A stretch of DNA of 62,416 bases, counting the filler, from Collodictyon triciliatum (lineage: Eukaryota), in the NCBI GenBank assembly GCA_043381765.1. It is 5 parts of 5 records of this genome, joined end to end, with 100 filler letters (N's around TTAATTAATTAA, not from the genome) between each part and the next. Parts side by side here need not be neighbours in the genome. Positions count along the whole stretch, not along the records: positions 23,887 to 49,105 come from JBHJMP010000388.1; 4 more parts are not named here. One strand, 5' to 3'. Each line of letters starts with the position of its first letter. Positions within the stretch are counted from its first letter, which is position 1. Under the pieces are notes generated by a model, which saw only the letters and a program-made list of their open reading frames with translations, had not been told where the DNA came from and made no database searches. The position numbers and the translations under genes are program-made. This document shows positions 46,501 to 48,726 of this stretch, one piece after another.

Positions 46501-48726
46501 TGTTCCTATTTTCCCCTGTATTTAATATTGACGATGTTCTATTTTTTTAAGTGCACTAGTTATCTATTAATTTTGTAAAGACAAACTTGAGGCAAGGAAA
46601 AGACTTACATCGCCGATGTCTCTTTCCAACATTTTTATTTTGGTCGACAGTTCATCATTTCTTCGTTCCAAGGTACGCTTATCTTTACTTATCTGCTCAA
46701 TTTGTCGTTCCATGGTTGATTGTGTTTGCTCTATTAAATGTGGTGAGAGAACTGGTGATTTACTGCTATTTTCTGAACTATGATTCTTTAAATGGAATTT
46801 ATGAGCAAAGGAAATCAAACGTAGATGCATCTAAAATAATCATATTAATATATGGAAATATAAATAACCCAATTCTTTCTTCTTTTCGATAGTGAGCTGG
46901 TGTGCCGAATGAATTAGCCTTGAATTTTCACTTTCTAGGCTTTTGATTTGGGTTTCTTTTTCGATATCCTTTAAGACGCAGGACACGACATATTGGAAAC
47001 CCCATATTAGTGTGATTGTTCATCTCATGAATTATTCATTTCCCGTGTTTTTTTCGTTGTGTAACAGAAACGCTACTCAGCTAAAAATTGATTAATGGAA
47101 CGTCGTTTTACCTTTTGCACCAAATCCTCGTTTTCCAGTTGCAACTGCTTATTTTGCTTGGATGTCTCGTCGGCGTACTTTTCCCACTTGAACAATTTTT
47201 CTGTTAATTCCTGTTCTTTAATTTCTAATTCCAAGAGACGGTCCTGGTATGACTGCAATTTCTGCCATAATATAAAATACTCAAGCTTAGTCATTGGCCA
47301 GGGAATTGTAGAATATTTGAATACGTACGTCCGCAAGTAGATGTCTGCTAACTTCACTGTAAAGGGCGTATAAGCAGAAAGAGATAGGGAAAAAAAAAAC
47401 ACCTTTTCGAGAGTCGTCTTCTGAAATCTGAGGGTATCATTTTCGTTCTGTAATTTTTGAAATAGAAGAATAAAGATATCAGGCTACAATTGAGTGCTAA
47501 TTAATTATTATTATTATTTATTTACAGAGACAGATTATTGTCAAATATTTTCAAGAATATATTCAAATGGTAAAGCAAAGTCTAAATAAACTGTTGTTAA
47601 ACGTTTGGACGAAATGTATGTATTATTATTGATGTAAATGGGCGATATATGTGACAAACCAGAAGCCGTGTTTTCAAGTCCTGTGAATTGTGAGAGATAT
47701 CAGACTCCATGGTTTCATCTTGAAATCCTCGTGACTATGATGAGAGGGATTATGCGCCACAATATTATTTGAATAATTAGAGTAAATGAACTGTGATCTT
47801 ATCGGAATAAGTGTTTCATGCTACCGAATGATAGATTGAAAATGAAATTTATGGTGTAAATTATACTTGGAGCGGGCTCGATGGAAAACTCCCTATGAGT
47901 GAAGTTTATTTATTCAAAATTATACGATCAACAAGAAAAGTACAACCTTAATTGTTTGAGAAAACTTGAAAGTGAATGGAAGATTTGTTTCCAAGAGAGC
48001 AGATGTGCATGGAAGATAGAAATAGATGATTTTTTTGGTTTCTTTTCAACAGTTTATTAAGAGAAAACAAAGCCGAGGAAACCGCCTTCGCCTCTAGGGA
48101 GATAGAAATAGATGATGACCTGAAAATGTAATGCGTATAGGAAAGAGGAATATTTACTTTCTGGTACTGATTTATTCGTGGCTATGCTCAACCCAAACGA
48201 AAAATCCTCGAAGCTAATCTTTCCATCATTATCTAAAATATTCAGCGTAGGCGTTGGTTAAAAGAATGCCTGTTAAATCGCAAAGTATATGATATAGTTG
48301 GACTATAAGAACTCATCACAACTCGTTTCGAAATAACTAACTACAGTCCTTTCTCTCTGGCAAATGCTTACCCGTATCCAATTTCTTCATCAAGGAATGA
48401 ATTTTTTCAGGGCCGAGATCGGGTGTGATTATCCTGACAATCTTTGGTGTGTTTTGACACATATGAATACAGAAAACTTGATAATACCATCATCGGGGAA
48501 AAAAGGATGAAACATGTGATGTTATATAAGGGACGTACAAGAATTGTAATTTGTCACGTTTTCTAGGCTATTTGAATTCTGATTTATTAAATGCATGGAG
48601 ACAGGATATGTGTAGGACTCCAACCTGCGAGAAGCCTTCAAGACCAATGAGTCCCTGCTCGTCGGGTTCTGCCTGTTGGAAAAAATTCCAGAGATTCTCA
48701 AACTGACTGTTTGTCAGTGTCTCCAT
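40529..48726 (-). CDS. Large protein with an N-terminal EF-hand pair, long coiled coil and low-complexity C-terminus
   Basis: METLTNSQFENLWNFFQQAEPDEQGLIGLEGF / ...LMKKLDT / DNDGKISFEDF (EF-hand loop); heptad-rich exons at 43500-47450; terminal exon of about 2.5 kb (ORF 40529..43003). Confidence 0.75.
44610..44888. repeat. (GTA)n microsatellite spanning an N gap, intronic
   Basis: Direct observation. Confidence 0.95.
45880..47517 (-). repeat. Near-identical duplication of about 130 bp containing a 45-nt exon (copies at 45880-46012 and 47386-47517)
   Basis: Exon NENDTLRFQKTTLEK at 45896-45940 and 47403-47447 with matching flanks apart from a small intronic difference. Confidence 0.9.
48014..48116 (-). 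mobile_element. 69-nt 5'-truncated retroelement 3' end with a 17-bp target-site duplication
   Basis: Direct repeat AGATAGAAATAGATGAT at 48014-48030 and 48100-48116. Insert on the minus strand: CCCTAGAGGCGAAGGCGGTTTCCTCGGCTTTGTTTTCTCTTAATAAACTGTTGAAAAGAAACCAAAAAA, 33/36 identical to 22358-22393. Confidence 0.8.

Follow-up and report, generated by a model that had tools for sequence, protein, structure and literature searches.

A 69-nt insertion in Collodictyon triciliatum is probably a 5'-truncated copy of a HAL1-like, ORF1-only retroposon

HAL1 is a non-autonomous derivative of L1 that encodes ORF1p only and, according to one study, arose several times in mammals (PMC5753468); its lasting coding capacity has been read, in a second, as a sign that ORF1p acts in cis and ORF2p in trans (PMC3627910). 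HAL1 is grouped with HeT-A and Ag-Sponge as ORF1-present non-autonomous LINEs (PMC5786205). TRE5-A.2 of Dictyostelium discoideum retains ORF1, has ORF2 deleted and is mobilised in trans (PMC3159450). Its ORF1 and both UTR modules also occur in its parent TRE5-A.1, it requires a 3' hairpin, and its insertion is targeted to tRNA genes; the 25% identical ORF1 of TRE5-B failed to support TRE5-A (PMC3159450).

We compared with these systems a 69-nt insertion in Collodictyon triciliatum (assembly GCA_043381765.1). It lies in a stretch of 62,416 nt, five parts joined end to end, which we call the window; the N runs of the window (8809-8908, 16631-16730, 23787-23886 and 49106-49205) are artificial spacers, each made of 44 N, a 12-base all-frame stop linker and 44 N. 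Our main reading, to which we give a probability of about 0.85, is that the insert is an ordinary 5'-truncated copy, produced by target-primed reverse transcription (TPRT), of a HAL1-like, trans-mobilised, ORF1-only retroposon that we call H, and that it sits in an intron. H works like HAL1: it is non-autonomous, encodes ORF1p only, has its coding capacity under selection and would use an L1-type enzyme. It does not itself belong to the HAL1 families of mammals. It differs from HAL1 in occurring in an unrelated eukaryote, in having a tandem-RRM ORF1 without a Pfam match at cut-off, and in that no parent LINE sharing DNA with it was found among those read here, HAL1 being derived from mammalian L1.

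The insertion is delimited by a 17-bp target-site duplication (TSD), AGATAGAAATAGATGAT, whose two copies are identical and make up the sole direct repeat of at least 10 bp in 47981-48150. They are separated by 69 nt (48031-48099), and the element reads on the minus strand:

48100-48116, no strand: TSD copy on the element's 5' side, perfect 17-bp repeat
48037-48099, minus strand: 3'-terminal 63 nt of H, a 5'-truncated copy (genome search and alignment to L033, a full-length H copy)
48053-48058, minus strand: AATAAA within the 63 nt, 16 nt upstream of the tail, a likely polyadenylation signal (from sequence)
48031-48036, minus strand: tail of six A (from sequence)
48014-48030, no strand: TSD copy on the element's 3' side, perfect 17-bp repeat

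The six A continue into the first A of the TSD, and the insert aligns with positions 1718-1787 of L033, which is 1794 nt long and flanked by TSDs. A genome search with the flank 47750-48030 gave a single copy (one of one candidate). The perfect 17-bp TSD around 69 nt, already proposed in the preliminary description, was borne out by the direct-repeat scan, and the reported match of a 36-mer of the insert to 22358-22393 was reproduced at 33 of 36 positions; the 16-mer core of the shared motif occurs twice in the window, with 0.15 occurrences expected. Two other points needed adjustment. The insert had been said to end in AATAAA and an A-rich tail; both are there, but the AATAAA stops 16 nt ahead of the tail. 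The insert had also been matched to the 3' end of an ORF1-bearing element on another scaffold, and the two do lie on different contigs (C388 for the insert, C387 for the long H copy at 20.7-22.4 kb of the window), but that long copy lacks its terminal ~33 nt.

None of the contigs from four sequencing runs, which contained at most 22% of the query words, bridges the site; one contig of run X17 extends 4 nt into the insert, which fits the filled allele. These runs, of which DNA run X1 and RNA run X11 gave short pieces only, showed no empty site. Poly-T loose ends at 48030 occur in three contigs of run X5 and four of X17; the RNA status of both runs is guessed, and these ends may stem from any H-family copy.

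The insertion lies in a gene that we take, from the pattern of its loop, to encode an EF-hand protein:

46110-48726, minus strand: EF-hand/coiled-coil gene, first 11 exons (contig joints and translation)
47893-48157, minus strand: intron 3 of this gene, 265 nt, with the insertion inside in sense orientation (from the open gene model)

The N-terminal EF-hand-like loop is split by intron 2 and followed by a coiled-coil-like region. Nine other introns of 132-212 nt, with GT-AG joints on the minus strand, are defined by contigs of runs X5, X11 and X17, X11 being an RNA run and X5 and X17 presumed ones. Adding a tenth intron from 48157 to 47893 leaves a frame of 308 codons free of stops, and no other model tested does so; an alternative donor for intron 3 gives stops, and no in-frame exon runs through the site in either the filled or the empty version. 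Without the insert and one TSD (86 nt), intron 3 would measure 179 nt, within the range of the other introns. We infer that the site is intronic. The insertion is thus inside the EF-hand gene, as the preliminary description had it, and the frameshift that it feared would not arise, the site being intronic in the only open gene model. The spliced junction of intron 3 was not seen in the contigs; the only one covering it, a low-depth contig (48096-48688, record 17 of X17), has introns 1 and 2 spliced and intron 3 unspliced, and reaches four bases into the insert. This contig represents either a precursor whose splicing is incomplete or a transcript that stops at the AATAAA of the insert; in the latter case it would encode a 115-aa EF-hand-only product. 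The insertion itself is ordinary and probably harmless.

We next consider the family to which the insert belongs. A search of the 75-Mb genome with the 69-mer gave 367 candidates, and the 40 that were scored are 97-100% identical over 65-69 nt. The exact 21-nt tip of H is found 154 times genome-wide (reversed control, 0). The first 30 exact tips in contig order, this insert included, comprise 26 stubs of 16-169 nt, two copies longer than 1.5 kb and two copies cut by a contig edge or gap; 22 of the 30 are stubs of at most 62 nt. A perfect, non-repetitive TSD within 300 bp was present at 18 of 57 distinct H ends and at 0 of 56 shifted controls, a statistic that leaves out simple-repeat sites and any end lacking a perfect 11-bp non-A core at a distance of up to 300 bp; the other ends among the 57 include long copies, contig edges and imperfect repeats. 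A looser rule gave 24 of 54 H ends, two doubtful rows among them, and 1 of 51 controls. TSDs measured 16-19 bp in 17 of the 18 perfect cases, A tails are short (mostly 5-15 A), and the insertion sites are dispersed and AT-rich.

H copies combine TSDs that vary in length and differ from site to site with a shared, A-tailed 3' end and a variable 5' end. Because of this common 3' end, the TSDs and the variable 5' ends, we attribute H copies to TPRT with 5' truncation, as had been claimed for the insert from its TSD and A tail; the claim of a recently active family is likewise upheld by the 154 exact tips and by TSDs at 18 of 57 ends against none of 56 controls. H copies resemble dead-on-arrival L1 copies in their variable 5' end, A tail and 16-19-bp TSD, and differ from them in that the stubs are very short and the tails short. 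We conclude that the insert is a dead-on-arrival, 5'-truncated copy of a non-autonomous non-LTR retroposon of ~1.8 kb.

The full element consists of 26-bp 5' monomers, a single tandem-RRM ORF1, a 3' UTR of ~375 nt with a T-rich tract that terminates in the tip, and an A tail; it has no reverse transcriptase (RT). Searching with 20560-22420 of the window gave 830 candidates, and many of the 40 scored span ~1.65 kb at 86-94% identity. L033 comprises 1794 nt between 16-bp TSDs, with room for ORF1 alone, and is a TSD-flanked full copy with ORF1 and without ORF2. It is the one copy with a perfect TSD among 34 long copies examined, a scarcity that fits the 1-8% divergence of the long copies. The 26-bp monomer is arranged in tandem at the 5' end, with about six units on contig C10190 as judged from match positions only. 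The ORF, of ~460 codons, starts ~40 nt from the 5' end of L033; it is open for 438 codons in a second copy (L034) and unbroken in a third (L040), and a public 1777-nt contig holds it complete, at 465 aa. Since H encodes a ~460-aa protein, we rejected a SINE, that is, a non-coding element with a head derived from a small RNA. Among 30 long copies read, ORF2 follows ORF1 in none; in most, the sequence goes on with the common UTR, and a few are interrupted, be it by a gap, by the end of the contig or by a further insertion. The long copy in the window is decayed:

20699-22052, plus strand: decayed ORF1 of a near-full-length H copy, with 8 frameshifting indels and 4.2% divergence from the per-column majority
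22053-22393, plus strand: 3' UTR of this copy, with the T-rich tract and, at 22358-22393, the matched 36-mer

The terminal ~33 nt and the A tail of this copy are missing, and it has no TSD of at least 8 bp.

The ORF1 protein of ~460 aa is predicted to comprise two RRMs followed by a basic low-complexity tail. Its N-terminal 166 residues were modelled as two RRMs (pLDDT 79), the top PDB matches of the model being Raver1, hnRNP A1 UP1 and HuR. The whole protein has no Pfam match at cut-off, and RRM_1 matches the RRM part below cut-off (E 0.024). A search of the ESM Atlas gave only leads at 0.84-0.90, to unnamed eukaryotic clusters of ZCCHC3 and RRM type; seven relatives, none named, were found among 1.84 billion protein representatives. 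Public collections contain near-identical copies together with two unnamed relatives, about equally long and 69% and 34% identical, and a metagenome scan with H returned one locus, itself another H copy.

Variation among 30 long copies indicates that this protein is maintained. In the RRM part, counting alleles rather than events on a tree, private variants comprise 53 synonymous and 206 nonsynonymous changes (pN/pS 1.13) and variants common to at least three copies 45 and 34 (pN/pS 0.22; Fisher P = 2e-9 for shared versus private). With CpG sites removed, shared variants give a ratio of 0.26 (transitions) and 0.27 (transversions), and one of 1.5-3.7 when read in shifted or reverse frames; the signal is weak in the C-terminal part (0.65, 0.90). 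We conclude that shared ORF1 variants are under purifying selection and private ones neutral. The simplest reading is that source copies of H need their own ORF1 protein.

A similar pattern would be expected from purifying selection on a host source gene. The insert could then be a processed-pseudogene stub of a highly expressed mRNA for a host RNA-binding protein, not a selfish element; L1-type enzymes copy any poly(A) RNA, and tandem RRMs like these occur in cellular proteins. We regard this as highly improbable. The genome has dense short introns, yet no intron-containing parent appeared among the 30 long copies read; the long query has 830 candidates; the many variants common to at least three copies point to several source lineages; and H carries 5' tandem monomers and an ORF1 homologous to one that precedes ORF2 in a resident LINE.

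That LINE is one of three families, A, B and D, that emerged when we looked for the RT that mobilises H. The RVT_1 profile matches at least 135 places on at least 124 contigs (150 of 170 candidates scored), in an assembly fragmented into 14,576 contigs. The 75 of these 124 contigs that we read contain APE-RT LINEs of families A, B and D, one Ty3/Gypsy element and two decayed copies that we take to be RLE-type. LINE B carries APE and RT, and LINE A has a C-terminal zf-RVT. The nearest solved structure for these LINEs is human L1 ORF2p (E 6.7e-45), with R2 at 1.6e-19, and we tentatively class them as L1-type on domain content and nearest solved structure. LINE B has an ORF1 ahead of its ORF2, and H ORF1 is 24-25% identical to it over the RRMs (E 2e-5 in a 20-locus search); no similarity to ORF1 of LINEs A and D was detectable. 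The LINE B match and the tandem RRM fold make the H ORF homologous to LINE ORF1p.

Some of the elements in the genome deserve separate mention. LINE D (L286, G000:C1003:1-1700; L258, G000:C5672) has few copies (each query matched 5-11 times); its ORF1 and ORF2 are open and its 3' UTR is long and pyrimidine-rich. It is a young, low-copy candidate donor. L264 and L276 (G000:C8641 and C7442) belong to a different non-LTR type; their RT copies are decayed and have an RLE-like motif at the C terminus. A gag-pol frame of Ty3/Gypsy type (L095:3146-7645, G000:C929), open across 1500 codons, lies inside a LINE A copy. On G000:C1334, an rve-type integrase ORF stands beside a helicase-like ORF (L102:3423-4679 and 5388-5999, labelled by eye), which is suggestive of a Polinton-like element.

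We then asked whether any resident LINE shares DNA with H. Neither blastn nor tblastx of H against LINEs A, B and D gave similarity beyond chance, the 3' ends of the three are unrelated to that of H, and no ORF2 remnant was found in H by tblastx. An RT match occurs on 4 of 116 contigs with a listed H end and is linked to H in none. On C519, a 30-nt match to the H tip ~1.5 kb past the RT belongs to an independent stub of 16 nt, which a 16-bp TSD of its own flanks; on C1140 the H match is on the opposite strand, 21 kb from the RT; C2464 has a full H copy with its own ORF1 ahead, not linked to the RT on the contig; and on C10840 the H end lies upstream of the RT and is not linked to it. Two further candidates were rejected: on C4856, the 5' part of H stands head to head with a family D RT, with a family B tail between them, a case of nested insertions, and LINE D, the last candidate whose ends had not been seen, has an unrelated tail and an ORF1 without detectable similarity to that of H. 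A copy of the motif linked to an APE-RT ORF2, which the preliminary description had expected, was thus not found in 75 of 124 RT contigs, and the motif ends an ORF1-only element. Of the two marks by which that description proposed to judge the family, TSDs and tails do recur on other copies, and linkage to RT does not.

These results bear on a different origin, in which H is a recent internal-deletion derivative of a LINE still in the genome, in the way that TRE5-A.2 derives from TRE5-A.1, and the insert represents the 3' tip of either the LINE or the derivative. Non-autonomous LINEs that retain ORF1 usually arise like this (PMC5786205, PMC3159450). Moreover, the assembly is fragmented, young near-identical copies end at contig edges, and an H-like autonomous parent may be hidden there or among the 49 of 124 RT contigs left unread. 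We nevertheless think such an origin unlikely: the contigs read hold only A, B, D, one Ty3/Gypsy and two RLE-type elements, H is linked to RT on none of the four shared contigs and has no ORF2 remnant, and its ORF1 is 24% identical to that of B and not detectably similar to those of A and D. No 5' or 3' part of H is shared with A, B or D.

Known ORF1-only elements offer parallels to H and differences from it. TRE5-A.2 is likewise a protist, ORF1-only non-LTR element, and by analogy H would be mobilised in trans (PMC3159450). H differs: it has no DNA in common with its candidate donors, its ORF1 reaches at most 24% identity with theirs, and its insertion sites are dispersed and AT-rich. HeT-A of Drosophila and Ag-Sponge of Anopheles are, like H, ORF1-only non-autonomous LINE derivatives (PMC5786205); they come from the Jockey and CR1 clades and HeT-A is telomeric, whereas H is dispersed and has an ORF1 akin to that of a resident L1-type LINE.

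The candidate donors leave insertions of the same kind. LINE A tips number 1217 genome-wide and LINE B tips 611, and both families leave TSDs similar to those of H and form short stubs like those of H, so short stubs belong to the enzyme or the host rather than to H. The median TSD is 17.5 bp for H against 16 for LINE B (P = 0.003, small samples, uncorrected) and 16.5 for LINE A (P = 0.11); TSDs starting with a single A number 12 of 18 for H and 5 of 20 for LINE A (P = 0.02, small samples, uncorrected). The TSD traits of H fully match neither LINE A nor LINE B. No LINE D insertion with a TSD was seen.

Stubs of these LINEs were also recorded in their own right. Among TSD-flanked LINE A stubs (L181-L210), 16 of 20 measure 16-20 nt, a tight cluster absent in H and B; LINE B has four stubs of 42 nt. 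In the window, 2906-2962 (minus strand) holds an 18-nt LINE A stub and A tail between 16-bp direct repeats (tip at 2922-2946), and 59286-59449 an older LINE A 3' fragment, 85% identical to a reference copy.

How the enzyme would recognise H turns on the 3' motif, in which GAGG can face CCTC. The preliminary description had invoked a shared LINE/SINE 3' stem-loop, and H would then be a family defined by this structure and recognised by a stringent LINE, like tail-sharing LINE/SINE pairs. The four base pairs of this stem, scored over 10 H copies, can form in 39 of the 40 cells, and a 3' hairpin is reported to be essential for TRE5-A (PMC3159450). However, the pairing is not in the minimum-energy fold, single-strand folding z-scores of the motif (-0.22 and -0.97) are at shuffle level, and the 10 copies show no covariation or compensatory change at GAGG/CCTC. 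A partner slid by three columns pairs equally well, the consensus fold takes other pairs and is weak (-5.7 kcal/mol), and LINEs A, B and D end otherwise. Ten young copies have little power to reveal covariation, so the stem-loop is unsupported rather than disproved; we judge it very unlikely to define the family. Recognition of L1 is directed by poly(A), and poly(A)-directed recognition would, by analogy, be the more economical account for H.

Taken together, we propose the following route for H as a HAL1-like, trans-mobilised element. Source copies would be transcribed, probably from the 26-bp 5' monomers, and then polyadenylated. Selection on ORF1 suggests that the encoded protein acts in cis, coating the RNA from which it was made. 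The APE-RT ORF2 protein of a resident L1-type LINE, the putative donor, would be borrowed in trans, the RNA probably being recognised through its poly(A) tail rather than a shared 3' stem-loop. The borrowed enzyme would nick at Y|A(A)T-like sites and prime on the A tail of H. At this locus reverse transcription would have stopped after ~63 nt, leaving the 17-bp TSD and an insert in intron 3 of the EF-hand gene with the protein unchanged.

The relatives at 69% and 34% identity are closer to H ORF1 than is any LINE ORF1 of its own genome. H could tentatively be seen as an old, parent-less ORF1-only lineage that has outlived its LINE and persists across species, taking ORF2 from LINEs whose tails are unrelated and whose ORF1 is no more than 24% identical; the ORF1 of H might also displace the nick in the second strand by ~1 base, giving longer TSDs. 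We consider this a possible but doubtful extension of the main reading.

No description of the H family was found in our literature search, the scope of which lay outside Repbase, most subscription papers and supplements. With H, the ORF1-only strategy gains an example from outside the animals in which the signal of selection is clean. The very short stubs left by three unrelated tails point to a low-processivity enzyme or to early interruption by the host. If H does pair with the ORF2 of a LINE whose ORF1 is distant, this would be the type of pairing that failed in the TRE5-A test (PMC3159450). With candidate donors that have a distant ORF1 and unrelated 3' ends, H provides a naturally occurring case in which to ask whether the two proteins, ORF1p and ORF2p, have to be cognate.
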